Source of the DNA: Escherichia phage JulesPiccard
Length of the DNA: 47,731 nucleotides
Sequence record: MZ501087
Reading direction: 5' to 3' (one strand)
Shown piece by piece: positions 22,340-40,060 of this stretch (its first letter is position 1; every line of letters starts with the position of its first letter). Position numbers and translations under genes: made by a program. The notes beneath the pieces are model-generated. The model searched no databases. It saw only the letters and a program-made list of their open reading frames with translations, and had not been told where the DNA came from.

Positions 22340-22640
22340 GTAACTCGATGTATACAATCTCATCCGCGAAAAATGATATACGCCCTGTTACGCCAATTTA
22401 CGCATTAGTTACATTAAAATATCTATATATATCAACCTTTTACTCTTATTATTATTATTATATATATTACTGTGTATATCATGTAACTACTTCTATAGAG
22501 CGTTCCGGTTATAATTTTAATATCATGTGGATTTATACAGTATTGCGCGGTAGCTATAACAATGCACCATCAGCGATAAACGGTATACACGATATACACA
22601 CTAGTTACATTGAGCTATAGCTGGGCTGAGGTGCTAAAAG
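22340..22640. repeat. AT-rich control-region repeat, copy 1 (contains (TTA)5 at 22446..22460)
   Basis: shares ATATCTATATATATCAACCTTTTA-(TTA)n-TATA core and TACATTGAGCTATAGCTGGGG tail with 39745..40060. Confidence 0.6.
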
Positions 22641-22978
22641 CCGTAACCAATGGCAATGCCTACACGCAATTACAAAGATTCACGCGTAAGTTTGAATCAA
22701 CGATTGGCAAAACCAATTGGACTGGCTACGGTGCCGAATATATAGTTAAATCATCGAAAGCAATCAACCAGAGAGATACAGAAATGACCTACTACATTAT
22801 CAAAGAGAAAAACAACGCACTTTTCGGCGATTGCTATTTTGGTGGCCCTGCTGGATACACCACAAATAAGAGCGAAGCTGACCGATTCGAGACCAAAGAA
22901 GAAGCCCGAGATGTGCTGACCGGGTACTTCACTGAAGAAGATTTGAAGTCTGTTAAAGTGGTTAAGATCAAGGGGTGA
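22610..22978 (+). CDS. hypothetical protein (start uncertain, TTG/GTG)
   Basis: 122-aa ORF heading the recombination operon; no in-frame ATG near 5' end. Confidence 0.4.
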   Translation: MSYSWAEVLKAVTNGNAYTQLQRFTRKFESTIGKTNWTGYGAEYIVKSSKAINQRDTEMTYYIIKEKNNALFGDCYFGGPAGYTTNKSEADRFETKEEARDVLTGYFTEEDLKSVKVVKIKG

Positions 22979-22981
22979 GTT

Positions 22982-23947
22982 ATGAGCTTTAAGGTTTTTA
23001 CGCGAGAGGAGCTAAGTAACGAGGCCTATCACGCTGAGACTGAACACATCTCCGGTAGCTCGCTTGTTGAGATTATCCAGGGCTCACCAGCTAAGTGGAA
23101 GTTCAAGCAACGAAATAATGATAGCAAGGCGCTTAAGTTTGGAACCTTAAGCCACACTATGATTTTGGAACAAGATGTATTCGATAAAGAATACCTTCGC
23201 GCAACAGACCTTGATGCAATCGAGGGATTAATTACAAGCCAGGCTGGATTGTCGGCAGCGCTTAAAAAAGTTGGTGTAGCTGGAGCGTCTGGGAAAGGAT
23301 ATGTCGAACTCATAGAGATGATGTATCGATCTGGTGAGGATTGGCCTGTTAAGTGGCTAATTGAGCAGCAGGAGAGCGCACAGGCGCTTGTGGAGGGTAA
23401 GGAGCTTGTTAGCGCAGCGGACTACGATAAAGTTATGGCAATGCGTGAAGTTCTTTGCAATATTCCTGCTTACGATAAGATTGTTAACAGTGAAACGGCG
23501 CAGAAAGAGTTATCAATATTTGGTGAGATTCTCGGGGTTGGCGTGAAGATTCGAATTGACCATGTTGACGTTGTTGATGGCGTAGTTCGCATCACAGATT
23601 ACAAAACGACAGCAGACGCAAGCCCTGAAGGATTTGGTAAGTCGGCATTCTCACACGGATACCTTGCAAAAATGACCCTTCAGAGAGATCTGTTTGTGAA
23701 GGCGTTTAACGAGAAGCGCAAGGTTGTCGTGGGATTGCTAGCGCAGGAGAAGGTAGAGCCATATCTCCCAATGCTTTACACCTTAACGGATGAGCAACTT
23801 CGAATCGGCCGCTTGCAGTACCTTGAGGCGCTAGCCACTTATAAGAAGTGCAAGGAGCTTGATATTTGGCCTGGCTACTCGAATGGCATTACAGAGCAAG
23901 AGCTATTGGTTCCTGAGTGGGCTCTAAAACAATACAAAGAAATCTAA
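22982..23947 (+). CDS. PD-(D/E)xK family exonuclease (recombination exonuclease)
   Basis: RIDHVDVVDGVVRITDYKTTA motif; adjacent to annealing protein and SSB. Confidence 0.65.
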   Translation: MSFKVFTREELSNEAYHAETEHISGSSLVEIIQGSPAKWKFKQRNNDSKALKFGTLSHTMILEQDVFDKEYLRATDLDAIEGLITSQAGLSAALKKVGVAGASGKGYVELIEMMYRSGEDWPVKWLIEQQESAQALVEGKELVSAADYDKVMAMREVLCNIPAYDKIVNSETAQKELSIFGEILGVGVKIRIDHVDVVDGVVRITDYKTTADASPEGFGKSAFSHGYLAKMTLQRDLFVKAFNEKRKVVVGLLAQEKVEPYLPMLYTLTDEQLRIGRLQYLEALATYKKCKELDIWPGYSNGITEQELLVPEWALKQYKEI

Positions 23948-23948
23948 A

Positions 23949-23991
23949 CAGCACAAATTGCTAAAGACAAAATTAAAAGGTGGGGTATGAT
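23949..23991 (+). promoter_or_regulatory. conserved promoter/operator element
   Basis: CAGCACAAATTGCTAAA ... TATGAT-TACCCCATCAAAAACGAACGAGG. Confidence 0.5.
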
Positions 23992-24020
23992 TACCCCATC
24001 AAAAACGAACGAGGTTAAAG

Positions 24021-24671
24021 ATGCAAATTTCAGAATCATGCAAGTCAATTCTAAACGCACTGCACACTGCTAAATCGCTATTTGCGAAGGCTGAAAAGTC
24101 TAAGCAGAACTCGCACCTAAAAAACAAGTACGCAACCCTTGAAGACGTACTAGCGGCTGTTGAGCCTGGTTTAGATGAGTGCGGTCTTGTTATGTTCCAG
24201 AGCGTTCTTGATGATGAGCAAACGAATCGCATGAAGGTTGAGACAAAGCTGTTCCATGCTGAGTCAGGGGAGTGGGTTAGCTTCTTAATGATAGTCCCAA
24301 TTAGCAAGAATGATGCTCAGGGTTATGGCTCCGCATTAACATACGCTCGACGTTACGGAATCACAGCGGCATTGGGACTTAGTCAAGCAGATGATGATGG
24401 CAATCTCGCAGCGAAAGGTGTTAAGGATTTCAAACGGGAACTTGAGAAGTGCAACACATTAGATGAGCTTCGTAATGTCTGGAAGGATGCCAAGCAGTCA
24501 CTTGACGCGGCAGGATGGAAGGTCTTTGAGCCTCATATTATTGAGCGCAAGGCAGAGATTGAAGCAAATGCAGCAACTGGCTTCAATCCAGCAACACCAA
24601 AGAAAGTTGCAGAAAAAAGTAGTATTGATGAAAAGCCTGAAGCAGAATCACAACAAATCGACACATTCTAA
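24021..24671 (+). CDS. ssDNA annealing protein (ERF-like)
   Basis: KNKYATLEDVL and GSALTYARRYG segments; context between exonuclease and SSB. Confidence 0.5.
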   Translation: MQISESCKSILNALHTAKSLFAKAEKSKQNSHLKNKYATLEDVLAAVEPGLDECGLVMFQSVLDDEQTNRMKVETKLFHAESGEWVSFLMIVPISKNDAQGYGSALTYARRYGITAALGLSQADDDGNLAAKGVKDFKRELEKCNTLDELRNVWKDAKQSLDAAGWKVFEPHIIERKAEIEANAATGFNPATPKKVAEKSSIDEKPEAESQQIDTF

Positions 24672-24713
24672 ATTTAACGGGGCTGCGGCCCCAACAAGCA
24701 GAGAGATAAAAAC

Positions 24714-25133
24714 ATGCACGTAATTACTGGTCAGATTCGCCGCGCTCCATTCACCAAAGAAGGACAGAACGCCAATGGTAGCTGGAAAATGTTTGCGGTT
24801 GATTTGAGTGAGCGATACAAGGATAAGGATGGTAATAATCATTACACCAACTATCGCGCAGTTTTCTTCGCTAAAGAGTCAATGTTAGATTGGTATAATG
24901 AAGCATTTCAAGAGGGTAAAATTGTTAGCGTTAGCGCTGAAAGCCTGGCTGTTGATGTTCGGGATAAAGATGGCAAGACTTACGTAACGGTCAATATGAA
25001 CAACCCTAGACTTGAGTTTAGCCAACGTGGTGATTCAGCACCACAACAGAAGGCGCAAAAGCAACCACAGCAACAGCAGAATCAACAGCAACCGCAACAG
25101 CAACAACAGTTTAATGAAGACATTCCATTCTAA
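24714..25133 (+). CDS. ssb: single-stranded DNA-binding protein
   Basis: OB-fold-sized N-domain, Gln-rich linker, C-terminal acidic tip ending DIPF as in bacterial SSB. Confidence 0.7.
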   Translation: MHVITGQIRRAPFTKEGQNANGSWKMFAVDLSERYKDKDGNNHYTNYRAVFFAKESMLDWYNEAFQEGKIVSVSAESLAVDVRDKDGKTYVTVNMNNPRLEFSQRGDSAPQQKAQKQPQQQQNQQQPQQQQQFNEDIPF

Positions 25134-25135
25134 AT

Positions 25136-25164
25136 ATAAAGCCCCTTTCGGGGCTTTTTTTATT
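25136..25164. terminator. bidirectional terminator (SSB / tailspike convergent)
   Basis: AAA-GCCCC-TTTC-GGGGC-TTTTTTT. Confidence 0.75.
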
Positions 25165-27274
25165 TTGCAATCCAGGTGCCTGGCGTTCCTGATGATGTGC
25201 AAATCCACTTTTCAATAAATGATGTTCCGCTTGGGTTTATGTTGTAAACAATATCACCAGCAACCCAGGTTAATGTTGTCGGAGCCGCTCCACCATAAGC
25301 TGTCGCCCTTGATTTGTTGTCAGTTCTGGTTAAAGATCCAAGTATGCTTGGGTTTGTTGCTGTATCGAATCTATTTCCATAGAAAGTTAAATATGGAAGC
25401 CCATCACCATACATCCTAACTGATGTGTCCGTAGTATTGGCTGATTCATTTCCAATTATAACCATACCTTGTGAATTCCATGTTATATTTCTATAAAAAC
25501 CATCAAAATAACAATTAATTATTGAGTTTTTTGATGTGTTTGCATCTATAGCAACATCCGTAGTTGATTCCCCTCCATGAGTGAATCTACAGCCTTTGTA
25601 TCTTACATTTACACCTCCAAAACCAACTTTTGAACACTCAGCTACAATGTCTGATATCTCAACTCCACCACCTCCAGAGAAAGAGAAAAGCTGCCCAACA
25701 TTTGTCGCAGATGAAGAGCTAAATGAGCAGTTGGTCGCGTTATAAAAAGAAACGCATGGAGTTGCGAGCCTATTTCCAATCTGCTTAAGAACAAAGTTAG
25801 AGCAAACTATGTTAGACCCCTGTATTGAAACCATTGCGCTATTGGGTTGCGAGTTCCTGTAAATTGATGTGTTTGATAAGTTAATGCTATTTAATCCACC
25901 CTCCTCGTTGTAAACATAAACGTCTATTTTTTGGTTGTTTGAAGACTGAACTCCAGATATCAATATTGATGATGAACTGGATACATCATCATTCTGCGAG
26001 TAAACCCTTAATCCATACTCTGTATTGTTGTTTGTCGTGACATTGGAAACAATTGACCCAACACATCGCCACAACAAAATACCCCTACCAAGATTGTTAG
26101 CTGGAGCAACACCAGTGTTACCATTGTAGTTAAACTTTCCTGATAGTATTGAGTTATTGAAACCATCACGATCTTGAATTCCGCAAACTAGATTATTAAA
26201 AGACCTTGCTTTATCAATGATCATGTTGCGACATGATACCATCCTTAATCCATCTTGTGATCCCTTAGTTATGATGCAACCATCAACAAGTCCATACTCG
26301 CAGTTTTCCAATAGAATCATGTGTCCGTTGCCTGACGTGTTATCAAGACCTGTCCCAACAAATCTACCTCCAATTATAGAGAAGTTGTTTGCGTAGCTAG
26401 CTCTCCATGCCGCAGTAACCAATTCACTTGTTAGCTGAATAGTTGAAGTGCCAAGCACTATATAATGCCCTGATCTGATCGTAACCTGCTTGCTTTGAAT
26501 GTAGGTTCCAGCCGGAAAATAAACATTTAGAGAGGAGTTAAGCGCTGAGATAATGGCGTCAGAATCATCAGTAACACCATCACCCTTTGCGCCAAAGTCC
26601 TTAACACTAACGAATCCCCTTGATGATATTTCACCCTTTGAGTAAACATCAAGGTTCTGCCTTGCTAGTGGCTTGTCTGTTAAGTCTGAGAGCGCCAAAT
26701 CTTTTCTTAGTAGGTTCTGCGTGTCAAGTGACGCCGCATAATCTGCCGCCTCCTGCGCTGAAGTTGCTGCCGCGTCTTTGGCTGATAGTGCGCTGGTTGC
26801 ACTTGCTGCCGCTGCATTCTTATCGGTGGTCACTTGGGCGGCATCATTTGCAACCTGTGCCCCAATAGAAACAACATCACCATGCTGCGCGTCTACCTGA
26901 GCTACCTTTGATTCAAAATCCGCAGAGTCAAAGTTATTGAAAGCATCAACAGCATCTGCAATCTCAGTTTCACGTGACTGATAGTAACGCAATGTTTCGG
27001 CAACATCCTGAGCTAAACCCTGAACGGTAATCCCATCATGAGCAAGGATCGCGTAACCAGTCCCAGCAGGAACAGTTTCAGAATTAGGATTATAAACATT
27101 AATCTGCGTATCGCTGATAATTTCTGAGATGGTGTAAATTTGTACTGGTTCAGTTTTAAATACAATTGTGGCGCCTGCCCTGATAAGAGTAAGAGGCGCC
27201 TTCCATGTCGTTCCTACGCCAGTCACCTCGCCATTTTCTACTAGTGACGCTGTTCCTAAGTCATAAATTGCCAT
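25160..27274 (-). CDS. tailspike / depolymerase (right-handed beta-helix, pectate-lyase-like)
   Basis: 704 aa; KDFGAKGDGVTDDSDAI motif; repetitive Asn/Ser/Gly/Ile-rich beta-helix-like segments; Ala-rich N-terminal adapter. Confidence 0.75.
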   Translation of the reverse strand: MAIYDLGTASLVENGEVTGVGTTWKAPLTLIRAGATIVFKTEPVQIYTISEIISDTQINVYNPNSETVPAGTGYAILAHDGITVQGLAQDVAETLRYYQSRETEIADAVDAFNNFDSADFESKVAQVDAQHGDVVSIGAQVANDAAQVTTDKNAAAASATSALSAKDAAATSAQEAADYAASLDTQNLLRKDLALSDLTDKPLARQNLDVYSKGEISSRGFVSVKDFGAKGDGVTDDSDAIISALNSSLNVYFPAGTYIQSKQVTIRSGHYIVLGTSTIQLTSELVTAAWRASYANNFSIIGGRFVGTGLDNTSGNGHMILLENCEYGLVDGCIITKGSQDGLRMVSCRNMIIDKARSFNNLVCGIQDRDGFNNSILSGKFNYNGNTGVAPANNLGRGILLWRCVGSIVSNVTTNNNTEYGLRVYSQNDDVSSSSSILISGVQSSNNQKIDVYVYNEEGGLNSINLSNTSIYRNSQPNSAMVSIQGSNIVCSNFVLKQIGNRLATPCVSFYNATNCSFSSSSATNVGQLFSFSGGGGVEISDIVAECSKVGFGGVNVRYKGCRFTHGGESTTDVAIDANTSKNSIINCYFDGFYRNITWNSQGMVIIGNESANTTDTSVRMYGDGLPYLTFYGNRFDTATNPSILGSLTRTDNKSRATAYGGAAPTTLTWVAGDIVYNINPSGTSFIEKWICTSSGTPGTWIAK

Positions 27275-27296
27275 TGTAAAGTCTCCATTTGTAAAA

Positions 27297-27311
27297 TAGC
27301 ACAGATTGCTA
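27297..27311. promoter_or_regulatory. isolated operator palindrome TAGCA-CAGAT-TGCTA at tailspike 5' end
   Basis: perfect 5-bp inverted repeat with 5-bp spacer, 22 bp upstream of tailspike ATG on minus strand. Confidence 0.45.
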
Positions 27312-27337
27312 AGTTGGATTGTAGCAGCTTTCAGACA

Positions 27338-27360
27338 TAAAAAAACCTCCCGTGGGAGGT
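27338..27360 (-). terminator. minus-strand intrinsic terminator after primase gene
   Basis: plus strand AAAAAA-CCTCCC-GTG-GGAGG. Confidence 0.65.
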
Positions 27361-28283
27361 TAGTCTAATAACTCGCTTGCTTTGTATATTCGCTTTCTTA
27401 TGCCTGACTTGAAAAAATTATCATCATTTGGTAATACCACATCAAGATTGCGATCGTCAGCAACAGCAAGTAATTCAAAATTATGGCGAGTACAAGCGAT
27501 GCGTAACTTGTGGTTTCTAAGCGCGTAAGCAACCATTTCCATATTATAACTGGAGTGACAAACAAGTACGCAGCGGTTGCCAGTACCAAGATGAACGTGA
27601 ACACCATCAATCCAATTGTCGACAAGATAAGCGTACTCATCATCTTTAAGAGAGCCAATAACAGCAACTGACTGGCGAGTGTAATCTTTTGCAGCATAAC
27701 TAACATCTCCCTCTTCATTGATAAACATTACATTGCACATTTCCTCTGATATACCGTCACTATAAGCCATAAAGCACGGTATTGCGTGTATTAGTTCGCC
27801 TGATTTTGCTCTACCAACATCAAATCCAAACTCGCTATAGATTCCCTCGTATGTACTGAGTGGGGTTGATTCTACTCTTTTGGTCCTTCCCATTATCTCC
27901 AGGCATCTTTCGTGGTCAATCTGAGCGCCCATCTTGTATGGTGATGTTCTTGATGCTTGCTTGTTTGCTTTGTTAACCACCTCGACGGGGATTAGGTTTA
28001 ACCACTCACCTAGAGCATCGATACATTCGCTGAACGACTCCCCTCGCAGTTTCTGGACCCAAAGAATTCCATCACCTGAGCCGCATTGGTTGCAAATAAT
28101 ACCACCATCACCAGGCTCGCTAACTTTGTCGGTCCATCTTGCGCGATCGTTTCCGCCGCAATAAATGCATGGTTGATGCTTCTTGGTCTGGAAGAACTTT
28201 GGGTCAGCGCCGCAGATATTAATAAGTGCCTTATCCCACAGGCCGCGCATTCTTGGTAGAACCTCTTTCTTATCGTAGTGCAT
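27360..28283 (-). CDS. putative DNA primase (zinc-ribbon type)
   Basis: CIYCGG..(x25)..CNQCGSGDG zinc-binding pattern near N-terminus; replication-module context. Confidence 0.45.
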   Translation of the reverse strand: MHYDKKEVLPRMRGLWDKALINICGADPKFFQTKKHQPCIYCGGNDRARWTDKVSEPGDGGIICNQCGSGDGILWVQKLRGESFSECIDALGEWLNLIPVEVVNKANKQASRTSPYKMGAQIDHERCLEIMGRTKRVESTPLSTYEGIYSEFGFDVGRAKSGELIHAIPCFMAYSDGISEEMCNVMFINEEGDVSYAAKDYTRQSVAVIGSLKDDEYAYLVDNWIDGVHVHLGTGNRCVLVCHSSYNMEMVAYALRNHKLRIACTRHNFELLAVADDRNLDVVLPNDDNFFKSGIRKRIYKASELLD

Positions 28284-28302
28284 ATCAATCTATCTCTTAA
28301 CA

Positions 28303-28337
28303 AATAAAAAAAGGATGTACCGATTATGGCACATCCC
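28303..28337 (-). terminator. minus-strand hairpin plus T-run upstream of primase gene (possible attenuator)
   Basis: plus strand AAAAAAA-GGATGT-N-ACATCC. Confidence 0.4.
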
Positions 28338-28366
28338 ATTACTTACTCTTTAACTTTTCGTGCTAC

Positions 28367-28555
28367 TTAAATTACAAAGTGATGAGTCATTCTTAGAGAC
28401 AAAAAAGACTCAAGATACCCCTCAATTACTTCCTTTTTACCAGTTTTTTTGTTGTAGGCGTATGGAATTCCTCTGCTGTTATCAACTTTACCAACAAATT
28501 TGTCGCCATCAACGTTAAAGATTGCTACGAATTTACATTTAGGGAATTTGTTCAT
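28367..28555 (-). CDS. hypothetical protein
   Basis: 62-aa ORF between HTH gene and primase. Confidence 0.35.
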   Translation of the reverse strand: MNKFPKCKFVAIFNVDGDKFVGKVDNSRGIPYAYNKKTGKKEVIEGYLESFLSLRMTHHFVI

Positions 28556-28604
28556 TTTGTATATCCTTGTTTAGTTTATCTGCTTTCGATGTGTTAACTA
28601 TACC

Positions 28605-29090
28605 TCATCCATGAGATATGTCTTTAGCTTTTCGTGCTGCTTCGTTAGCAGCCTTAATTTTACGCCATGATCGACATTCTGGTTTGGTTGCTAACTCGGA
28701 TTCAGTAACCACACGCAGCATGTGACGCTTTTTGCAACGCAGCGTAAGAGGCTTTCCATTGCCGTCGAATTGCAGATCTGGTCGGCAGAATGTAGCGCGA
28801 AAACCTTCTCCGGTTCGTTTGTAGTAGTTGTGAGATAGCTGAGCGCCACGTGCAGAGATCATGCCACGCTTAAACCACTCTTCTACAGCCTGCGGCGTCA
28901 CCTTTAACTGCTTTGCGATATTCGCCTTTGTGCCGAAGAAATCAAGGAGCATCTCAAGCCGCGCGCGTAGCCCAGCCCTTACCTCATCTTTCAAAACGTA
29001 GTAACCTGAAGGTCGTTTCCGCTGCTTTTTATCTTCAGTGCGGATGGTTCCGTTATTGCCGTTAGTGGTTCGCTTATCAACTGCATTCAT
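28605..29090 (-). CDS. putative DNA-binding protein (HTH)
   Basis: basic 161-aa protein with HTH-like IAKQLKVTPQAVEEWFKRG; first gene of a divergent operon; palindromic operator in its upstream region. Confidence 0.45.
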   Translation of the reverse strand: MNAVDKRTTNGNNGTIRTEDKKQRKRPSGYYVLKDEVRAGLRARLEMLLDFFGTKANIAKQLKVTPQAVEEWFKRGMISARGAQLSHNYYKRTGEGFRATFCRPDLQFDGNGKPLTLRCKKRHMLRVVTESELATKPECRSWRKIKAANEAARKAKDISHG

Positions 29091-29103
29091 TTTATTACCT
29101 CAA

Positions 29104-29145
29104 TAGCATTTTTTGTTAAAAGTCATTCTGATTTGATGGTAGTAT
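29104..29145 (+). promoter_or_regulatory. conserved promoter/operator element in divergent region (HTH gene / helicase)
   Basis: TAGCATTTTTTGTTAAA ... TAGTAT. Confidence 0.5.
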
Positions 29146-29191
29146 TGTACTCAATTAAACGCTACAAGACAATTTTTATAGGAATTTAGAT

Positions 29192-31187: not shown

Positions 31188-31607
31188 ATGAATATTACAG
31201 ACAAAGTTGATTACATTGAGTTTTACCCGGGCCCGGTTAAGTCATGCCCCAAAGAGGACGACGAACAGATCTTTTGCTCTGATTGGGTTAAGTACCATTA
31301 TCCTCAGATTATCTATTGGCATACCGTTAATGAGGGGAAGAAATCAATGTGCGCAGCCAGAAAGGATGCAGCAAAAGGCCTCCTTAAAGGCGTATCAGAC
31401 TGCCTATTTCTAATACCTGAACCATTGCGAGGAAGGTATCCATTTGGCGCAATAGAGCTAAAGAGGGCAGGGAAAACGCAGGCTAGTCCAGTCAGCGAAG
31501 ATCAGAAGGCATTCCTGAAGAGCGTAAGAGAATCAGGCGGCTTCTCGGCTGTGGCCTACGGTCGTGAAGGTTTTCTTGCGGCGTTCAGAGAAATGATTTC
31601 AAAATAG
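31188..31607 (+). CDS. VRR-NUC domain nuclease
   Basis: GVSDCLFLIP..GAIELKR (D..ELK nuclease motif); 1-nt gap after helicase stop. Confidence 0.6.
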   Translation: MNITDKVDYIEFYPGPVKSCPKEDDEQIFCSDWVKYHYPQIIYWHTVNEGKKSMCAARKDAAKGLLKGVSDCLFLIPEPLRGRYPFGAIELKRAGKTQASPVSEDQKAFLKSVRESGGFSAVAYGREGFLAAFREMISK

Positions 31608-31647
31608 CACTAATTGCTAAAGAGATTTCGCAGGGATGCGATATAGT
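31605..31647 (+). promoter_or_regulatory. conserved promoter/operator element
   Basis: TAGCACTAATTGCTAAAG-N-TATAGT-TACTCCATCGAAACGAAAC. Confidence 0.55.
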
Positions 31648-32448: not shown

Positions 32449-32488
32449 CATTTTTTGTTAAAACTAAAATCCAGGGATGGATTATATT
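32446..32488 (+). promoter_or_regulatory. conserved promoter/operator element
   Basis: TAGCATTTTTTGTTAAA ... TATATT. Confidence 0.5.
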
Positions 32489-32518: not shown

Positions 32519-32644
32519 ATGAAAATTGTAGACAAAGAGATGCTTGACCTTGCTCAAATTTACTCAAAGGCAGCAGTAAATCAGGGTTGTGACTACCTCT
32601 GGATGTGTGCTAAAGAATACCTGAAAATGGCATACGGATTATGA
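32519..32644 (+). CDS. hypothetical protein (41 aa)
   Basis: ATG after RBS GGAGAGG and conserved leader; overlaps next gene by ATGA. Confidence 0.3.
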   Translation: MKIVDKEMLDLAQIYSKAAVNQGCDYLWMCAKEYLKMAYGL

Positions 32645-32889
32645 TAGTTGAAACCGGACGCGCCGCAGTATGGTCGCATTGTGGAGAGGCTGGACTTCAA
32701 GATGATATTAAGCAGATATCCCGCTTCTTTGATATAAAAGATATCAGCGTTGTCTTTAATGGTAAATTATCTTACATGGATGAGCGACCAAGAAAATACG
32801 TAAGAGTTAAGCCGGGCGTCAGGATTGATGTTAACGAGTTCCTCAAGGCTGAGGGATACAAGTTTAAGATAACGAAGCCTAAGGATTAA
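32641..32889 (+). CDS. hypothetical protein
   Basis: 82-aa ORF, translationally coupled. Confidence 0.4.
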   Translation: MIVETGRAAVWSHCGEAGLQDDIKQISRFFDIKDISVVFNGKLSYMDERPRKYVRVKPGVRIDVNEFLKAEGYKFKITKPKD

Positions 32890-32891
32890 GT

Positions 32892-33143
32892 ATGTTGGGT
32901 TTAGATTTTCAGCCAGAGCATTACGATTTGGTTCATGGGCAAAGCGGTGCGAAGTTTAGGGCGATACCTATTGCTGACTGGTTCCCTCCTGACTATGTGG
33001 ATGTGAACGCAAAAACTAAAGACGGAAAGTGGGTGCAGATTTACTACTCTCCAGCGTGCGGAAACCTTTGCATGACCGACCTTGAGCGAAAGTTAGCAAT
33101 TAGTGCGGAAGTGATAGGCTACTGGTTGAAAGAGGTTGAATGA
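32892..33143 (+). CDS. hypothetical protein
   Basis: 83-aa ORF. Confidence 0.4.
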   Translation: MLGLDFQPEHYDLVHGQSGAKFRAIPIADWFPPDYVDVNAKTKDGKWVQIYYSPACGNLCMTDLERKLAISAEVIGYWLKEVE

Positions 33144-33226
33144 CGAGCCTAATACTAGTAGCATCGTTACCACTGTTTAGCTTTACTATCTTATACTTTA
33201 TCGCAATGAATTAAGGAACTTATATA

Positions 33227-34357: not shown

Positions 34358-34358
34358 G

Positions 34359-34401
34359 TAGCACTTTTTGCCTAAAGGATGCCGTAGAAATACGGCATAA
34401 T
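34359..34401 (+). promoter_or_regulatory. conserved promoter/operator element
   Basis: TAGCACTTTTTGCCTAAA ... CATAAT ... AAATCGAAACGAGATG. Confidence 0.5.
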
Positions 34402-34442
34402 CACCAAATCGAAACGAGATGAACTAAACCAGGAAACACAAA

Positions 34443-34619
34443 ATGACTAAGATGATTTATTGCACCAAGAACAACTCCAAGACTCTGCCGTTTACTGTCA
34501 ACCAGCCGTACAATGCGGAGTACCAGGGTGATGGATATTTCAAGATTTACGGCGATGACATGACGTGGATTTTAGCGCCGATTGATGGTTCGCTGGTTGA
34601 ATTTATTATCGCTGACTAG
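34443..34619 (+). CDS. hypothetical protein (58 aa)
   Basis: ATG after conserved leader; promoter element 34359; terminator follows. Confidence 0.35.
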   Translation: MTKMIYCTKNNSKTLPFTVNQPYNAEYQGDGYFKIYGDDMTWILAPIDGSLVEFIIAD

Positions 34620-34644
34620 CGCAGCAAAAACATAGCGTTAAACA

Positions 34645-34670
34645 CGGGGGGGCTTTTGGCTCCCTTTTTT
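34645..34670 (+). terminator. intrinsic terminator before lysis cassette
   Basis: G-rich hairpin then TTTTTTT. Confidence 0.5.
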
Positions 34671-34749
34671 TATGCTTCTTTTCCGAGCAGGTCTAATGTA
34701 TCATTCTTTTACTAACTTAAGCATTGACAAATAAATAAAGGTGGATCAC

Positions 34750-34965
34750 ATGAGGGAAGTCATTAACGCCGCTACAGCATCAACTGGCGGCGCTGCTTTT
34801 ACTGGTGCGGCAACTGGTCAAATGACTATAGCAATAATCAGCCTTATCGCTCTGATTATTTTTGGTGCCTGGGGAGCGTACTGGAAGTTCAAGGATAGCC
34901 AGGCTATTCGCCGAGCGCTTGAATCAGGGGATCTAAAAACAGCACTAAAGATAAGGAGCAAGTAA
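34750..34965 (+). CDS. holin (probable pinholin)
   Basis: 71 aa, Gly/Ala-rich then hydrophobic TMD, charged C-terminus; directly upstream of SAR endolysin. Confidence 0.6.
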   Translation: MREVINAATASTGGAAFTGAATGQMTIAIISLIALIIFGAWGAYWKFKDSQAIRRALESGDLKTALKIRSK

Positions 34966-35451
34966 ATGAAGCAGAAGATAGCCATTACCGCGGCTACGGC
35001 TGCGGCTATATACATCGCGGCGCCGCTTATTGAACTTGTGGAGGGTGTAGAGAATAAGCCATACATGGACATTGCCGGAATTCCTACGGTCTGCGCAGGT
35101 ATCACTGGGCCTGACGTGACATGGGGTAAAACTTACAGTAACAGAGAGTGTCGCAACCTTCTTGAGAAGCACATCCAGATTCATGGAAAGCATGTTCAGA
35201 ATGCCGTTACCTATCCAATCGCACCTCAGACAAGGGCGGCTTTAATCAGCTTCAGTTATAATGTTGGTGGCTCAGCAATGAGGAATTCTACCGCTGTGAG
35301 ACTAATTAACCAGGGTAAGATTGAGCAGGGTTGTAAGGCTCTCGGGATGTGGAATAAAGCTACCGTTAATGGCAGGAAGGTTGTGGTTAAGGGATTGGTA
35401 AACCGCCGGAATCAGGAGATTAAATTATGTTTAAGTGGATTGCAGCGTTAG
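34966..35451 (+). CDS. SAR endolysin (lysozyme, T4/P1-Lyz-like)
   Basis: N-terminal Ala-rich weak TMD (IAITAATAAAIYIAAPLI) then catalytic E-x8-D-x5-T (VENKPYMDIAGIPT). Confidence 0.75.
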   Translation: MKQKIAITAATAAAIYIAAPLIELVEGVENKPYMDIAGIPTVCAGITGPDVTWGKTYSNRECRNLLEKHIQIHGKHVQNAVTYPIAPQTRAALISFSYNVGGSAMRNSTAVRLINQGKIEQGCKALGMWNKATVNGRKVVVKGLVNRRNQEIKLCLSGLQR

Positions 35452-35816
35452 TAATGTGCGTAGCTTTGTCTGGATGTTCAGCAACTGATGCACTGACCGG
35501 ATTGATTGGCAGCAAGCCGGAGGTTACAGCTCAGGCCGGGGCAGAGAATAACAAGGTTGGAGTTGGGTTAACGAATAAGGTCGACTCTAGTAACTCCAGT
35601 GATGCCACTGTTAAGGATTCCAGCGTAGGCTCTCTGGATAGCTCGAGTGGGAAAAAGACTGCTGACAATTCGATTAAGGCCTCAACAATTACCGCCGAAA
35701 AGATTGAAATTACCAATAACGAATCATCCGCGCTTCCGTGGGTTGGAACAGGAGCAATGGGTTTGTTGGTTTTAATTCTCATGGCATTAATCTTAAGACG
35801 TAAAAAAGCCTCCTAA
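35427..35816 (+). CDS. unimolecular spanin (u-spanin)
   Basis: N-terminal lipoprotein signal with lipobox LSGCS plus C-terminal TMD followed by RRKK; start embedded in end of endolysin gene. Confidence 0.65.
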   Translation: MFKWIAALVMCVALSGCSATDALTGLIGSKPEVTAQAGAENNKVGVGLTNKVDSSNSSDATVKDSSVGSLDSSSGKKTADNSIKASTITAEKIEITNNESSALPWVGTGAMGLLVLILMALILRRKKAS

Positions 35817-35834
35817 TGGAGGCTATATTTTTAT
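35801..35834. terminator. bidirectional terminator (lysis cassette / minus operon)
   Basis: AAAAA-GCCTCC-TAAT-GGAGGC-TATATTTTTA. Confidence 0.7.
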
Positions 35835-36166
35835 CCAAATAACTCGTCGTCCGTCATTGTTCCTATATTCATCATCTCTTTTATGTACTTGCTTTGATAC
35901 CCGTTAAGCGCCTCGAAGTTAAACTCAAATGGTCTTTTCAAGCTACCCTTGCTAACAAACTCACCACACTTACCATCAATGTATCCAGCAGTTAGCATTT
36001 TTGCACAAAATTCCTTTGATGCGGCACTGCAAAACTCTCTGTGCGACAAACCAGCCGCTTTGCTGAATCTCTCAGAGTCCTTGTGTTTGTAGATGAATCG
36101 CGCCAAATGCTGGCGCGTAAAGTAGGAATAAGATTCACAGAATCGGTACACGTCAAGGATGAACAT
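35831..36166 (-). CDS. hypothetical protein
   Basis: 111-aa ORF, RBS AGGAG; last gene of minus-strand operon. Confidence 0.45.
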   Translation of the reverse strand: MFILDVYRFCESYSYFTRQHLARFIYKHKDSERFSKAAGLSHREFCSAASKEFCAKMLTAGYIDGKCGEFVSKGSLKRPFEFNFEALNGYQSKYIKEMMNIGTMTDDELFG

Positions 36167-36168
36167 AA

Positions 36169-36255
36169 TTAACTCCTGAGTACTGCCAAAACAAATAGAA
36201 GCATCGAAATTGTTACAACAACACCAAGTATTATCAATAGTATCGATTCAATCAT
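36169..36255 (-). CDS. possible 28-aa hydrophobic micro-protein
   Basis: MIESILLIILGVVVTISMLLFVLAVLRS between two minus-strand genes; not in ORF track. Confidence 0.25.
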   Translation of the reverse strand: MIESILLIILGVVVTISMLLFVLAVLRS

Positions 36256-36258
36256 AAG

Positions 36259-37842
36259 TCACCCCAGCAATCGTGGATTAATGTAAACTTTATCACCAAT
36301 CAGGCACGTGTAGTTTTTCTCATCAAGCATTGGCAGCAGGTGATCTTTAATCTTAGTCATCACTCCAGCCTGAGCTTCGAATGGTTTGACCTTACGAGCA
36401 GCTTCATATAGAGAACGAACGCCTACTACGCCTTTCCCGTTCCTGCCTTGTTTAATCAGAATATCAATCAGCTTATTCATCTCGGCATTGTCTCCAGCGT
36501 GACCAGCGGCGTTGGCAGATGACAGATAAGTCTTGCTAAGTTCCTGGAACATAATTACAGCCTCCTGCATTGTGTCCAACTCAATCTCCCTGGACTTCTG
36601 TGGACTCCCGCCGTTAGGGTTGAACCAGTTGCGAATAGTGTGAAGAACCGCAGCGATTCTGATAGCCTGCTTATCGAACTTGCCTAACGCACCGCGCAAC
36701 ATTGTGTGTGAATACTTCCCGCCGTCCGCGAGGTGAGGCTCCATTTCCTGACGCGCTCGGTTGAGATATTTCATTGCTGAGTTGCTCACTGTCAACTTAA
36801 CATCTTGCTCATTCATGATTTCGTGAACCAGTCGGAAGTAATCAGCCTTTAGTCCACCATCAATTGGCTCGTATGTTGATTCACCATTTTCATCAACGAA
36901 TACACGCTCGCCCAGGAATGACTTTTCACGTACAAGCAGGAAACGTTCCGACACACCAATACCACGCGCACCAGCATTCATGATCGCGTTTATTGTTTCA
37001 TCCTGCGCAATTACTGAGATGCAACCCATAGCAAAGAAACTCATGTTGTTCTCTGCATTCGCGCGAGCGATAGATACGTGCCCACCATCCCATGCTTTAA
37101 GAACAAGTTCGCTGTTCGTTTTCTTAGAGCCATCACCATAGGTCATGCCAAGCAGTGAGTTAACACTCGTTGCCTCATCCGAGATAACCGCGAAGTTACC
37201 CTGGCGGTTGTTTATTCGTGCCAGGCCTTCAGGTGTGGTGTCTGATACCGGGAATACGATATCGCACAACTTCTCCAGTTTTTCCTCTAGCTCCTCCTTT
37301 TCCTCAAATAGGGAGGCCATCTCTGAAGGAGATTTTTCCTGCTTCATCTCTTTGGATAATGCGGATAGTTTTGCCATAATCTTTTTGCGCTCACGCTTGC
37401 GAACTTCATTCAGTCGCTCGGTCTCAGCAATCATTGGAGCAATCGAAAGTGAGTTGATGGCTGATTTACCAGTTGATGGCGGCTGACTGGTCACGACGTA
37501 AAGCGAAGTCGGTTGCTGAGTTCCATGATACTCGACAGTAAAGCGGCCCAGCATCGCAGCAGAAATACACCCCAGGAAGTGCATATAGGCTGAAGACTCT
37601 GGGAACTGAACGGAGCGGGCAATGTTGGCAGAAAGTTTACCAACAACATCAATATCATTACCGAGTGAGATTACGGGGTACTTGTCATTAGCGGAATCAA
37701 TCTCTACGGGCGCCTTCCAGAACGATTGAGACTGTCGATAGCCATTGGCATTAATAGCGACTCGCAGGGGTGGGAGGTTGTCTGCGGCAGCAATTGCCAT
37801 AACCTGTTCAACAGATAGCTTATCTTCGTTGAAATCAAACAT
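36259..37842 (-). CDS. large hypothetical protein (Walker-A-like STGKS motif)
   Basis: 527 aa; QPPSTGKSA; own promoter element on minus strand at 37873..37915; N- and C-termini duplicated in 40684..41223. Confidence 0.55.
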   Translation of the reverse strand: MFDFNEDKLSVEQVMAIAAADNLPPLRVAINANGYRQSQSFWKAPVEIDSANDKYPVISLGNDIDVVGKLSANIARSVQFPESSAYMHFLGCISAAMLGRFTVEYHGTQQPTSLYVVTSQPPSTGKSAINSLSIAPMIAETERLNEVRKRERKKIMAKLSALSKEMKQEKSPSEMASLFEEKEELEEKLEKLCDIVFPVSDTTPEGLARINNRQGNFAVISDEATSVNSLLGMTYGDGSKKTNSELVLKAWDGGHVSIARANAENNMSFFAMGCISVIAQDETINAIMNAGARGIGVSERFLLVREKSFLGERVFVDENGESTYEPIDGGLKADYFRLVHEIMNEQDVKLTVSNSAMKYLNRARQEMEPHLADGGKYSHTMLRGALGKFDKQAIRIAAVLHTIRNWFNPNGGSPQKSREIELDTMQEAVIMFQELSKTYLSSANAAGHAGDNAEMNKLIDILIKQGRNGKGVVGVRSLYEAARKVKPFEAQAGVMTKIKDHLLPMLDEKNYTCLIGDKVYINPRLLG

Positions 37843-37872
37843 TACTTCTCTCCGTGTTGTTTCTGAGCGGCC

Positions 37873-37915
37873 ATTATATCAACGGCCGCCTATAATTCAT
37901 TATCAATTTGTGCTA
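37873..37915 (-). promoter_or_regulatory. conserved promoter/operator element (drives 527-aa gene)
   Basis: minus strand TAGCACAAATTGATAAT-N-TATAAT; leader CAGAAACAACACGGAGAG. Confidence 0.5.
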
Positions 37916-37916
37916 T

Positions 37917-38270
37917 TTACAGGTATTGCGCTTCAAATCTGTAGTCACCGCACACTGTAACAAAGCCAACCTCTTCGTCACGGTATAGCTGCCAGGCATT
38001 GCCTTCTCTATCGTAAACGTATCCAGCAAACTGCCCAAGACCTGCATGAATGGCAACTTGATACCTCTTCCCTTCGGTAAAGTACTTGCGAATAGATGAG
38101 CGATGGTTAACCTTTGTGCAGTAAATAGTTTTGGTCTTGATATACTTACCGCGCCCTTCAATGTTAATCCATTTGCCATCTTTCTTGATTTGCTCTACAC
38201 CATCTTTAACGCGAGCTTTGTATAATACGTTTTCGTTGCTAATCCAGTTCTTTGTCAGTGTAGTAGTCAT
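37917..38270 (-). CDS. hypothetical protein
   Basis: ORF with ATG MTTTLTKNW; ATGA overlap with upstream gene. Confidence 0.45.
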   Translation of the reverse strand: MTTTLTKNWISNENVLYKARVKDGVEQIKKDGKWINIEGRGKYIKTKTIYCTKVNHRSSIRKYFTEGKRYQVAIHAGLGQFAGYVYDREGNAWQLYRDEEVGFVTVCGDYRFEAQYL

Positions 38271-38431
38271 TTTGTTACTCTCTTCGTTGTCCACATGAAT
38301 TTGTTAGGTACTGATTTGCGCACGATTCGCACAGCAATCTTGTCAAACTTCTGAACTAAACCGTAAATCTTCCCATCAAGTGAGGAGCGGTAAACAGCCT
38401 CTTCCATTGCGTCGTAAAAGTTGTCGAACAT
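38267..38431 (-). CDS. hypothetical protein (54 aa)
   Basis: MFDNFYDAMEEAVY...; fills gap between neighbouring minus genes. Confidence 0.3.
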   Translation of the reverse strand: MFDNFYDAMEEAVYRSSLDGKIYGLVQKFDKIAVRIVRKSVPNKFMWTTKRVTK

Positions 38432-38434
38432 TTT

Positions 38435-38626
38435 CTATCTCTTTGTTGCGTAAGTAATATTGCCCGCTGGAGTTGAGCATGTGATATCAAGTGGTTTGCT
38501 GTTGTGCTTAATTGTCTTGCTCTGCTCTCTAGCTGTCAAAACTGAATCAATAATCCTTTGGATGATAACCTTATCTCGTTTGCTTGACAGCTTCCATCGT
38601 TTCGTTAAAGTTTTTATGTCTTGCAT
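38435..38626 (-). CDS. hypothetical protein
   Basis: 63-aa basic protein, RBS GGGAGATG; promoter element on minus strand upstream. Confidence 0.45.
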   Translation of the reverse strand: MQDIKTLTKRWKLSSKRDKVIIQRIIDSVLTAREQSKTIKHNSKPLDITCSTPAGNITYATKR

Positions 38627-38652
38627 TTCACATCTCCCGTTTCAATGAGATG

Positions 38653-38695
38653 AATATACATGAAAAGCCCCGAAGGGATTTAGCGATTCGTGCTA
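38653..38695 (-). promoter_or_regulatory. conserved promoter/operator element (internal to minus operon)
   Basis: minus strand TAGCACGAATCGCTAAA-(hairpin CCCTTCGGGG)-TATATT-CATCTCATTGAAACGGGAGATG. Confidence 0.5.
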
Positions 38696-38841
38696 TTGCG
38701 TGCTTTTTCTATCGCCCTTAGCATAATCTCATGACTATCAAGCAAGTCTTCTCGGAACCAATCCCCGCATGGCCAGCCCTTTCCGCTGTAGGCGCTGATG
38801 ACCTCCAGATCGAAATAATTTATCTCAGATGGTAATAGCAT
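38680..38841 (-). CDS. hypothetical protein (53 aa)
   Basis: MLLPSEINYFDLEV...; stop codon inside promoter element. Confidence 0.3.
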   Translation of the reverse strand: MLLPSEINYFDLEVISAYSGKGWPCGDWFREDLLDSHEIMLRAIEKARNSTNR

Positions 38842-38844
38842 TAC

Positions 38845-39036
38845 TCAGGCCTCCATAATGTATTCAAACTCTGATGTAAACAGTGGAAGCTCCCTTCCGG
38901 AAGGAGTCTTGATACTAACCCCGCCGGACTCATACTGTCGCATAACCTCGTAAGAACCTCCAATCTCAACTCCGTAGAATTCTCTCTCGTATTTGCCGTG
39001 TTTCGTTTGAAAGCTGATTAATTTAATTTTCATCAT
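38845..39036 (-). CDS. hypothetical protein
   Basis: 63-aa ORF in tightly packed minus operon. Confidence 0.4.
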   Translation of the reverse strand: MMKIKLISFQTKHGKYEREFYGVEIGGSYEVMRQYESGGVSIKTPSGRELPLFTSEFEYIMEA

Positions 39037-39272
39037 TTCACCTCATTAAAGGTTGCAATACCAGGGATAAACATTCCAACCTTCCAGCCCGCAATGGCAA
39101 TCCATCCAGAGTCGTGCTTGTGCGGTCGCTCAGCGCCATTAATCACCCACTCGTTCGGGATTGTCTTGCCGTTAATGATTAGCGGCTCAGCGTCGTATGC
39201 AGAGCCTTTGACGAATGGTGTTAATACCTTCTTGTCTGTACTTGTAATAACGTTAGTGCAGCGAATTTTCAT
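39033..39272 (-). CDS. hypothetical protein
   Basis: start MKIRCT after GAGGA RBS. Confidence 0.4.
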   Translation of the reverse strand: MKIRCTNVITSTDKKVLTPFVKGSAYDAEPLIINGKTIPNEWVINGAERPHKHDSGWIAIAGWKVGMFIPGIATFNEVK

Positions 39273-39282
39273 ATCCAAATCC

Positions 39283-39462
39283 TCAAATAAATGGTAGGCA
39301 TTCGTCACAGCCAAGTCCATCACAGCACAGGAATTCATCTTCTGACTGGAATTGCTTAGCCAAATCTATATCCAACTTTCCTCGCACCACAAGTTCCGTG
39401 TAATCCTCGTTAAGCCCAATCAGTGCGCATTCTTGGCGTAACTCATCTTTATCAATCTTCAT
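39283..39462 (-). CDS. hypothetical protein (Cys-rich C-terminus)
   Basis: MKIDKDEL...; first gene after minus-strand promoter element at 39490..39533. Confidence 0.4.
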   Translation of the reverse strand: MKIDKDELRQECALIGLNEDYTELVVRGKLDIDLAKQFQSEDEFLCCDGLGCDECLPFI

Positions 39463-39489
39463 ATCCACCCCCTCGTTGTTGATGAGTTG

Positions 39490-39533
39490 ACTATACCCTC
39501 GCCAGACCATAACGTCATTAACAAAAAGTGCTA
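39490..39533 (-). promoter_or_regulatory. conserved promoter/operator element (heads minus operon)
   Basis: minus strand TAGCACTTTTTGTTAAT ... TATAGT ... CAACAACGAGGGGG. Confidence 0.5.
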
Positions 39534-39544
39534 TTCGTCAGATT

Positions 39545-39660
39545 TATGGATTGTTGCAGATATTGCAATGATTCACATGATTATTGCACATATAGCAATA
39601 TTGCTTCAGATGCAATGATGTTTTTGATTGTTGCGAAAAGTGAAATGAAGGGGTGAGTGA
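39545..39660. repeat. iteron-like cluster of TTGCA/TGCAA motifs
   Basis: about 7 ATTGCA/TGCAAT units at roughly helical spacing. Confidence 0.45.
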
Positions 39661-39744
39661 GCGAATGATAGATGGATGGACTACCATACAAGTTGATTTT
39701 GATTCTTCTTGAGCAACTTTGCGCATACGCGTTATAAAGGTTAT

Positions 39745-40060
39745 GCCATGTAGATGAAATCTCACTCCGCAGGAATCGTGTACGCCTATCACGCAGGATT
39801 ACGCAATGGTTACGTAATAATATCTATATATATCAACCTTTTAGTGTTATTATTATTATTATTATTATATACGTGTATATAGTGTAGATAGTGGATATTG
39901 GATATTGCGATAGTTTTCTATGATTTTTTCCTACACTTGTAGGAATGTGACTACACTGTAGGAATAAATAGGCATATATGGGCCACCCCTCCATAAAAAC
40001 TTATCTACAATCTGTACACGGCTTTACATTGAGCTATATCTGGGGTTGGTAGCTGAAAAG
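39745..40060. repeat. AT-rich control-region repeat, copy 2 (contains (TTA)6 at 39847..39864)
   Basis: same core and tail as copy 1; lies in 620-bp divergent intergenic region. Confidence 0.6.
39930..39962. promoter_or_regulatory. two adjacent palindromic sites CCTACACTTGTAGG and CTACACTGTAGG
   Basis: direct repeat of an inverted repeat, operator-like. Confidence 0.4.

Follow-up and report, generated by a model that had tools for sequence, protein, structure and literature searches.

The genome of Escherichia phage JulesPiccard (MZ501087), whose 47,731 nucleotides were analyzed as a whole and are called the window here, carries two copies of one non-coding module, copy 1 at 22325-22625 (+) and copy 2 at 39725-40045 (+). 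We tentatively propose that these copies are paired origin-type unwinding elements, or else one origin and its cis-acting partner or enhancer. This reading draws on the layout of the module, in which phased repeats, a putative site for integration host factor (IHF), the longest A/T tract and an inverted repeat are arranged as in a theta-type origin, and on the fact that the module is duplicated, strongly conserved, non-coding and co-varying between its copies. A neighboring block of TTGCA repeats, which an earlier note on this DNA had taken for origin iterons, is probably the packaging (pac) site of the phage.

JulesPiccard is an Rtp-like siphovirus of the T1 family (Drexlerviridae, Braunvirinae) with a complete, circularly permuted genome of 47.7 kb. 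Its identity to Rtp, RobRod40, SU57 and MSK is about 85-88%, and its gene order is that of Rtp and T1; no record identical to the window was found in our database comparison. T1 belongs to the original set of T phages, and its relatives are notorious contaminants of laboratories and fermenters as well as candidates for therapy. Although JulesPiccard encodes its own replication-start machinery, no initiator or origin is annotated in it. No origin was found in SU57 (PMC7718038), and neither iterons nor an origin were found in TLS (PMC11447400). In fact, within the T1-like phage literature that we searched, iterons are co-mentioned only in the TLS paper, the Rtp (PMC1367250) and T1 genome papers lying outside that search.

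The two copies belong to a single repeated unit

The earlier note had described a core and a tail shared by two regions between divergent operons, and both points are borne out by sequence and alignment. The copies lie in two large, divergent, non-coding intergenic regions, 22239-22783 (~545 bp) and 39511-40162 (~652 bp). They have an identical 24-mer, ATATCTATATATATCAACCTTTTA (22420-22443 and 39821-39844), and a common tail, TTACATTGAGCTATA[G/T]CTGGG (22605-22625 and 40024-40044), and the ungapped match between them reaches 78% over 102 nt. We evaluated the significance of the repeat with Smith-Waterman scores against dinucleotide shuffles and with a genome-wide tile scan for the best partner of each piece. 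When the AT core is removed, the alignment of the left flanks persists (z=8.6) and the tails align as well (z=15.3), neither score being reached by any of 200 shuffles; for the whole module z is 19.4 (0 of 60 shuffles). Because flanks and tails are significant without the AT core, the similarity is not confined to low-complexity AT sequence, which was the doubt that the earlier note had raised about itself. In the tile scan, the best partner of each piece of the module is the other copy. Chance is excluded as an explanation of the two-copy module. A third tail-like match at 31211-31252 (TTACATTGAGTTTTACCCGGG, 62% over 42 nt), within a VRR-NUC-like open reading frame (ORF), was rejected as probably due to chance.

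Several details of the initial description have to be amended. The two regions were rightly placed, but the similarity begins further left than 22340 and 39745, at ~22325 and ~39725. The longest TTA tracts count five and seven units, not five and six. The tail is shared as described up to its last base, which differs between the copies (CTGGGC versus CTGGGG). Two ORFs that overlap the modules, 22315-22620 (+) and 39544-39792 (-), were considered and rejected as coding, since in most relatives stops or frameshifts interrupt both.

Anatomy of the module

Read from left to right, both copies consist of a conserved stretch, TAC repeats, an IHF consensus, an A/T run, an inverted repeat and a tail. 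The opening stretch is GCATAC(A/G)CGT. It is followed by three to four repeats with a TAC core, (G/T)TTACGC or GTTACAT, which are 9-11 bp apart and would thus face the same side of the helix. In copy 1, these direct repeats (22379-22414, +) read ATACGCC, GTTACGCC, TTTACGC and GTTACAT, with TAC cores at 22379, 22389, 22399 and 22410 (steps of 10, 10 and 11 bp); in copy 2 (39781-39818, +) they read GTACGCC, TCACGCA, TTACGCA and GTTACGT, with cores at 39781, 39790, 39800 and 39811 (9, 10 and 11 bp). Each copy therefore holds at least three short, helically phased direct repeats, as expected of an origin, of which the TAC core is the only invariant part. Copy 1 has further GTAAC/GTTAC sites at 22331, 22340, 22483 and 22643, all pointing left, and at 22604, pointing right; the motif has 7 sites in this copy against 0.77 expected (P=1.7e-5). 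A 9-mer, TAGTTACAT/ATGTAACTA, also occurs three times in this copy, rightward at 22406 and 22602 and leftward at 22481.

Next to the repeats, the 13-mer TATCAACCTTTTA matches the IHF consensus WATCAANNNNTTR perfectly in both copies (22430-22442 and 39831-39843) and is preceded by the AT-rich element AATATCTATATA, so that each copy has the core and the 5' A/T-rich element of a putative IHF site (22418-22442, +, and 39819-39843, +). Genome-wide, the consensus is matched eight times, and two of these matches are the identical 13-mers of the two copies. The A/T tracts come next. The one in copy 2 (39847-39871), (TTA)7 then TATA, is with 25 nt the longest run of pure A/T in the genome; the one in copy 1 (22446-22469), (TTA)5 then TATATATTA, is the second longest with 24 nt, and the next run measures 16 nt. 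These tracts, next to the putative IHF sites, are candidate unwinding elements.

A long-range inverted repeat begins at the edge of the A/T run. In copy 1 (22468-22603), 16 of the 18 positions of its arms (22468-22485 and 22586-22603) are complementary, and 100 nt lie between them; in copy 2 (39872-40020) the arms 39872-39890 and 40002-40020 form 16 Watson-Crick pairs and one G-T pair out of 19, with 111 nt enclosed. The tail follows (22605-22625, +, TTACATTGAGCTATAGCTGGG in copy 1; 40024-40045, +, TTACATTGAGCTATATCTGGGG in copy 2) and starts with yet another (G/T)TTACAT. Core and tail are therefore the two ends of a single unit, linked by the inverted repeat. The palindromic sites that had been noted near copy 2 are present: an inner palindrome, TTCCTACA/TGTAGGAA, lies at 39928-39945, and TGTAGGAAT occurs twice, at 39938 and 39957, its second occurrence following the palindrome (39928-39965). 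A LexA box at 22468 was rejected by eye, because TACTGT fits only one half-site.

Conservation among Rtp-like phages

Both copies are present in all seven Rtp-like genomes examined. To place their conservation on a scale, we ranked 150-bp windows of the genome over six aligned relatives. Copy 1 (22345-22545) is 96.2% identical, which is the 99th percentile, against an average of 85.5% for the aligned genome; the genes to its left are unrelated among the same relatives. Beyond this group, the copy 1 module is covered to at least 80% of the query in all 134 matching phage records and reaches the Rogunavirinae at ~80% identity, nearly always without annotation. Outside phages, searches of 5,426 complete E. 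coli genomes and of a plasmid collection gave no match to it, and a search of IMG/VR for the exact core returned only 13 stretches, mostly from isolates already among our matches.

Copy 2 is less constrained: its core is conserved at ~80%, the part to the right has diverged, and its interior falls into sequence groups. The full form of its tail is found only in JulesPiccard, Msk and Rtp, other relatives retaining TTTACAACCAG. Its inverted repeat is kept through compensatory changes, with 81% of cells paired against 23-60% when the partners are slid, and with 8 pairs changed on both sides against 4.0+/-1.2 in shuffles (1/500), in a test that is lenient since the structure was drawn by eye from the very sequences tested. 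The inner palindrome behaves differently from group to group. In SU57, A110b, T145P1 and 12397V, TTCCTACA-CT-TGTAGGAA becomes TTCTGACA-CT-TGTCAGAA, a symmetric double change, and the element is wholly absent from Rtp and IME542; it has the look of an operator-like site confined to a sub-group.

The earlier note had also suggested that (TTA)n is prone to slippage. This holds for copy 2, which has 4 units in Rtp, 6 in Msk and 7 in JulesPiccard and the group-B phages, but hardly for copy 1, where the number is constant at 5 apart from a 4-nt deletion in A110b; and the A/T run as a whole keeps to 24-28 nt among the relatives despite the change in TTA number. On the evidence of these alignments, the module is non-coding DNA under strong purifying selection.

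The same arrangement recurs in T1 and TLS

Only short patches of the two regions can be aligned with T1 (Tunavirinae) and TLS (Tempevirinae). Each of these phages has its own two similar segments at the same two syntenic intergenic regions, one upstream of recE and the other between pac and the early-right genes. The T1 pair has 68 identities in 91 positions and the TLS pair is 67% identical over 121 nt (E=5e-9). Both pairs again contain the longest A/T runs of their genomes, so that a potential unwinding element adjoins the repeats here as well.

In each genome a short motif flanks the A/T tract, and this motif is the same in both copies and differs by subfamily. In T1 it is TGTAAC/GTTACA, with 7 sites against 0.22 expected (P=4e-9) in the recE-side region (IG1); the Rtp-like phages have GTTAC/TGTAAC, as in T1, and TTACGCC-AA(A/T)-TTACGC is common to T1 and JulesPiccard. 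In TLS, GTTCAC stands left of the tract and the inverted GTGAAC right of it. The TLS modules are devoid of GTTAC and the JulesPiccard modules of GTTCAC. Such concerted change of a motif at two loci is the pattern expected of sites read by a phage-encoded protein. As far as these comparisons go, the module is an old, family-wide non-coding element of the T1-like phages (Drexlerviridae). One position differs: instead of divergent promoters, the recE-side copy of TLS has a rightward gene on either side.

As a side observation, the TLS module repeats (TGTTCAC/GTGAACA, at 28740-29030 and 49902+100..+460), which stand in inverted sets on the two sides of the A/T tract, are similar to the type 1 iteron of P4 ori/crr, TGTTCACC. 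Primases of the T1 family have just the zinc ribbon in common with P4 alpha. The likeness of the repeats may be a coincidence or may reflect a shared, undetected DNA-binding fold.

Replication proteins and a possible mechanism

The replication cluster includes the leftward primase and HTH (helix-turn-helix) genes (27360-29090), with a Cro-like HTH protein at 28605-29090 (-), and a DUF3987 helicase is encoded at 36259-37842 (-). The primase has a zinc ribbon of the P4 alpha type (49% over 53 aa, E=1e-12). Its likeness to P4 alpha ends there, with no match to the helicase or the C-terminal origin-binding domain. For the helicase, an AlphaFold2 model (pLDDT 89.9) finds its best folds in the Protein Data Bank (PDB) among MCM2-7 subunits and Orc1/Cdc6, at a Foldseek probability of 1.0 but with template modeling (TM) scores of only 0.3-0.37; its C-terminus runs helix-strand-helix-helix-strand-strand and is winged-helix-like. 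PDB sequence searches with the helicase and the HTH protein returned nothing useful.

A related protein is encoded by the second of the early genes that follow copy 2 (40684-41223, +; 179 aa, phrog_7327), which we consider a "mini" paralog of the helicase. Its residues 3-53 correspond to helicase residues 1-51 (70%) and its residues 69-131 to 465-527, the winged-helix-like end (57%), and it is devoid of the ATPase core.

If the modules are origins, a sequence-specific protein would occupy the helically phased (G/T)TTAC repeats and IHF would bend the DNA at the adjacent consensus site. The 24-25 bp of pure A/T would then melt, aided by negative supercoiling from the flanking divergent promoters; according to the twin-domain model, promoters firing outward on both sides should leave the A/T tract negatively supercoiled. 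The inverted repeat on the right could be extruded, or could form a hairpin once single-stranded, and the MCM-like DUF3987 helicase and the zinc-ribbon primase would be loaded at the module. A more elaborate version, which we consider unlikely, envisions two cognate origins of archaeal or eukaryotic style. In this version, oriented sites and an IHF bend would surround the melting tract, the MCM-like AAA+ winged-helix helicase would be loaded there, the mini-helicase paralog would either serve as loader or hold firing in check, and (TTA)n would tune the length of the unwinding element.

The TTGCA block is probably a packaging site

The TTGCA cluster that had been reported at 39545-39660 is indeed present. 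It belongs to an ultra-conserved block (39540-39705, +) with GATTGTTGC at 39549 and 39626 and with ATTGCA/ATGCAAT units, whose identity across the six relatives is 93%, the 97th percentile of genome windows. Several genome ends fall here. Position 1 of T1, the start of its annotated 2.8-kb terminal repeat (repeat_region 1..2800), lies within a GATT|GTTGCA unit that aligns with GATTGTTGCAG at 39549. In MSK, PhageTerm placed the forward packaging start at position 36,862 (PMC8421802), which by homology maps to 39683|39684 in JulesPiccard. The authors of the SU57 genome locate pac in this same untranslated region, the end of their genome having been chosen with the guidance of PhageTerm (PMC7718038), and the end of their record maps to 39701; that of the Rtp record maps to 39593. 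The small terminase subunit TerS matches the Pfam family GP3_package (E=5e-13), which is the P22 gp3 family. At 39540-39547 the block also contains a P22-pac-like AGATTTAT, 8 of the 12 bases of the P22 pac core quoted as AAGATTTATCTG (PMC11447400), an 8-mer of which ~1.5 occurrences are expected by chance.

Because the ends of T1, MSK and SU57 map to this block or its T1 counterpart and TerS belongs to the P22 gp3 family, we believe that the TTGCA block is most likely pac, and not a set of origin iterons as first suggested. A P22-gp3-like small terminase would start headful packaging rightward from it. The (G/T)TTAC repeats inside the shared core are better iteron candidates than the TTGCA units.

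Genes and promoters around the modules

The terminase and structural genes run rightward up to ~21.9 kb and are followed by a short leftward Cor/lipoprotein cassette. After copy 1 come recE-erf-ssb (rightward), then tail fibre, primase and HTH regulator (leftward), the genes from a RadD/SNF2-like helicase through lysis (rightward), the DUF3987 helicase with small genes (leftward) and finally small early genes that run rightward, back to terS. Beside copy 1, the true first gene of the leftward cassette is a small hydrophobic ORF at 22133-22238 (-), ~35 codons long and thus below the 60-aa limit of the ORF listing, which has a good Shine-Dalgarno (SD) sequence, GAGGGG, and is common to RobRod40. 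On the other side, the first rightward gene is 22784-22978 (+; 64 aa), most likely starting at ATG 22784 with the SD sequence GAGAGA; the alternative start TTG 22610, or that of Rtp rtp46, would push the ORF into the conserved non-coding tail. A tRNA gene lies at 46817-46891 (+; 57 bits with Rfam), where relatives annotate tRNA-Arg.

Each module is flanked by promoters. To the left of copy 1, a leftward DR-type promoter (22278-22324, -) with its DR motif AATAGCACGAATTGCTAAA at 22322-22304, the spacer palindrome CGCAAGGATGCG and the -10 element TACTAT (22283-22278) forms the left boundary of the conserved block. The early-left operon has a leftward DR-type promoter at 39490-39536 (-), with the DR motif from 39535 downward and the -10 element TATAGT at 39495-39490. 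The two rightward promoters downstream of the modules have no DR motif and a plain sigma-70 look. One is predicted at 22718-22746 (+; TGGACT-17-TATAGT), ~280 bp downstream of the IHF site, and would serve the gene at ATG 22784 and the recE-erf-ssb operon. The other, the early-right promoter (40094-40122, +; TTGATA-17-TATTAT), precedes a first gene at ATG 40163; it matches 10 of 12 positions, with TG, and was the sole convincing match of a sigma-70 scan. It is conserved, reading TTGAC.. in relatives, and its spacer contains a ACATGTAAC site. Inside the module, where other annotators have marked predicted promoters, promoter-like matches do not rise above shuffles (5 versus 3.1+/-1.9 and 4 versus 4.2+/-2.0) and differ between the copies.

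The DR repeat itself, AATAGCAC-N3-TTGnTAAA, is a family-wide 21-nt motif found at 18 sites, ~22 nt upstream of a TATAGT/TATAAT-like -10 element and a conserved leader CATCGAAACGAGAGG. The sites are 2175+, 9906+, 14298+, 15559+, 22320-, 27297+, 29104+, 31605+, 32446+, 34359+, 37915-, 38695-, 39533-, 41244+, 42375+, 43745+, 44363+ and 45511+. Within it, TAGCA-N5-TGCTA forms a palindrome centered near -42, as a class II activator site would be. The motif has been described in TLS, its function being unknown (PMC11447400). Six of the 18 DR promoters have, just upstream of the -10 element, a 12-nt spacer palindrome NNCA-NGGA-TGNN (2197-2208, 14320-14331, 22287-22298 (-), 31627-31638, 32470-32481 and 45533-45544) whose outer bases covary (GCCACGGATGGC, GACATGGATGTC, CGCAAGGATGCG, CGCAGGGATGCG, TCCAGGGATGGA). 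Several others have inverted repeats flanking the -10 element instead.

Origin or something else?

In the light of these results, the claim of a replication origin is only partly sustained: the origin-type anatomy, the purifying selection and the recurrence of two copies in T1 and TLS speak for it, the TTGCA iterons do not, and "origin" is itself an inference, a case made from anatomy only. A number of observations weigh against it. GTTAC/GTAAC is not significantly enriched in copy 2 (2 sites versus 0.97 expected), and the phased repeats have little beyond the TAC core in common across all copies. The IHF site of copy 2 is degenerate in Rtp and RobRod40 (TAACAACCATTTA), and the modules of T1 and TLS lack the consensus. 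DnaA-box matches in the module, scored by eye, reach at most 7 of 9 positions, and cumulative GC skew tracks only the direction of transcription and gene orientation. Neither copy lies within or beside an initiator gene, the replication genes being ~5 kb (primase/HTH) and ~2 kb (helicase) away from the modules. No replication protein diverges between JulesPiccard, T1 and TLS in step with the GTTAC/GTTCAC difference; while the motif is that of T1, the C-terminal domain of the helicase resembles its TLS counterpart more (63%) than that of T1 (52%). Finally, repressor operators such as those of lambda OL/OR just as typically show a concerted change of sites in two control regions.

This last point leads to a rival explanation that we find doubtful but take seriously, namely that the module is a duplicated transcription-control region, the counterpart in a lytic phage of lambda OL/OR. 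Operators would then be formed by the (G/T)TTAC sites and palindromes, and their phage regulator (e.g. the Cro-like HTH protein), with IHF bending, would switch the recE and early-right sigma-70 promoters and/or the leftward ones. In fact, just two rightward promoters here have no DR motif, and the copies lie ~250-280 bp upstream of them; a ACATGTAAC site sits in the early-right spacer, T1 has GTGTAACAC/GTGTTACATG beside its early promoter, and other annotators placed predicted promoters inside the module. The symmetric change of the copy 2 inner palindrome between phage groups is operator-like, and a repressor would account for the concerted motif change in both copies as well as an initiator. 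However, operators of the lambda type overlap core promoters and have their regulator next to them, whereas here overlap is limited to one ACATGTAAC site, with none of the (G/T)TTAC sites reaching into the recE promoter, there is no regulator gene next to the module, and the module core stands 250 bp from the promoters that it would control. The promoter-like matches within the module are at shuffle level and not conserved between copies, the recE-side copy of TLS lies between co-oriented genes, and the longest A/T tracts of the genome and the phased, non-palindromic direct repeats are left unexplained. A structured RNA, a small RNA or 5'-untranslated-region element transcribed from near the A/T tract and folding into a long hairpin with the inverted repeat as its closing stem, appears very unlikely. 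The closing stem is part of the minimum-free-energy fold of both copies, its compensatory changes include several T-G positions that would be wobble pairs on the + strand, and copy 2 folds better than shuffles. But it does so on both strands (z=-2.33 on +, z=-2.89 on -) and as DNA (z=-3.78), which points to a symmetry at the DNA level, and the fold of copy 1 is at shuffle level (z=+0.35 as RNA, +0.25 as DNA). Moreover, the hairpin interiors of the two copies are unrelated, there is no terminator past the tail and no convincing shared promoter, and Rfam 15 has no match in either region at E<=1, its scan of the whole window yielding one tRNA and two weak unrelated matches only.

The two remaining alternatives concern recombination and packaging. 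The modules could be linkers or hot spots, homology patches at mosaic boundaries between which the 17-kb block moves as a unit, as the earlier note had imagined. Copy 1 adjoins recE-erf-ssb, the sequence to its left is unrelated among relatives and breaks exactly at the conserved block, and the sequence right of copy 2 falls into distinct groups. However, the left-of-copy-1 and right-of-copy-2 types assort independently in the aligned phages, so that an exchange of the 17-kb block as a unit finds no support. A passive patch would explain neither the internal architecture nor the differing two-copy modules of T1 and TLS, and a recombination event between the copies, which are directly repeated, would remove 17 kb of essential genes. 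We therefore rate this explanation as highly improbable, slightly below the structured RNA. Least credible of all is a packaging accessory, in which the IHF site and the A/T tract would aid terminase at pac. IHF does help at P1 pac and lambda cos, and copy 2 starts ~40 bp right of the mapped packaging start, with its IHF site ~150 bp away from it; the MSK paper also cites an earlier proposal of five ATATA repeats in T1 pac (PMC8421802). But copy 1 has the module without the pac block, 17 kb from any reported terminus, and the second copy of T1 and TLS is likewise at recE.

Thus, paired origin-type elements remain the reading that we adopt, with due caution. It provides two precise, conserved candidate origin sites per genome, separated from the neighboring pac site, and it points to proteins that may act on them in trans, namely IHF, the Cro-like HTH protein and, together with its truncated paralog, the MCM-like helicase. 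If true, it would offer a handle for the engineering of T1-like phages (minimal replicons, replication-defective strains) and an example, in a bacterial virus, of an MCM-like helicase being loaded at an origin.

Comparison with known systems

The TTGCA block resembles a P22-type headful pac and the pac end of T1, in that TerS is of the P22 family and the ends of T1, MSK and SU57 lie in the block or in its T1 counterpart. Unlike P22, where pac is inside gene 3, the JulesPiccard block is intergenic and 6-8 kb upstream of terS, and its GATTGTTGC/ATGCAAT units have no counterpart in P22. Within the block, the ends of Rtp and T1 fall in TTGCA units and those of MSK and SU57 ~90-110 bp further right.

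For the modules, the closest parallels are replication origins with iterons. Lambda has a single ori, inside its initiator gene O, with iterons of 18-19 bp, an AT-rich region and a palindrome. The modules similarly have phased repeats, an A/T-rich tract and an inverted repeat in the same linear order, near promoters that could aid opening; they differ in being two and intergenic, in their repeat cores of 5-7 bp, in having no O-like initiator that we could recognize and in the IHF consensus between repeats and A/T tract. P4 uses two cis sites, ori and crr, and its annotated record shows TGTTCACC iterons at 9310-9413 flanking an AT stretch. Again there are two separated regions that share a short iteron, phased by ~10 bp and in both orientations around an AT stretch, together with a primase zinc ribbon and, in TLS, a motif (GTTCAC/GTGAAC) that resembles the P4 iteron core. 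Unlike in P4, homology to the alpha helicase and origin-binding domain is not detectable and the JulesPiccard motif is GTTAC, not GTTCAC; the TLS likeness may be due to chance.

The two-site arrangement also brings to mind SPP1, a pac-type siphovirus whose oriL and oriR lie tens of kb apart, each with initiator boxes beside an AT-rich segment. In SPP1, the initiator G38P and its boxes have been identified experimentally and oriL is inside the initiator gene, whereas the JulesPiccard candidates are intergenic and known from sequence. A putative IHF site beside a candidate unwinding element recalls the IHF-assisted origins oriC, pSC101 and R6K, and inverted short sites flanking an A/T tract, as in TLS and partly here, recall the origin recognition boxes and DNA unwinding elements of archaeal origins, as does the match of the helicase model to MCM and Orc1/Cdc6. 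The modules differ from oriC and from archaeal origins in having no good DnaA boxes and no identified Orc-like site-specific binder, and the TM scores of the match are low (0.3-0.37).

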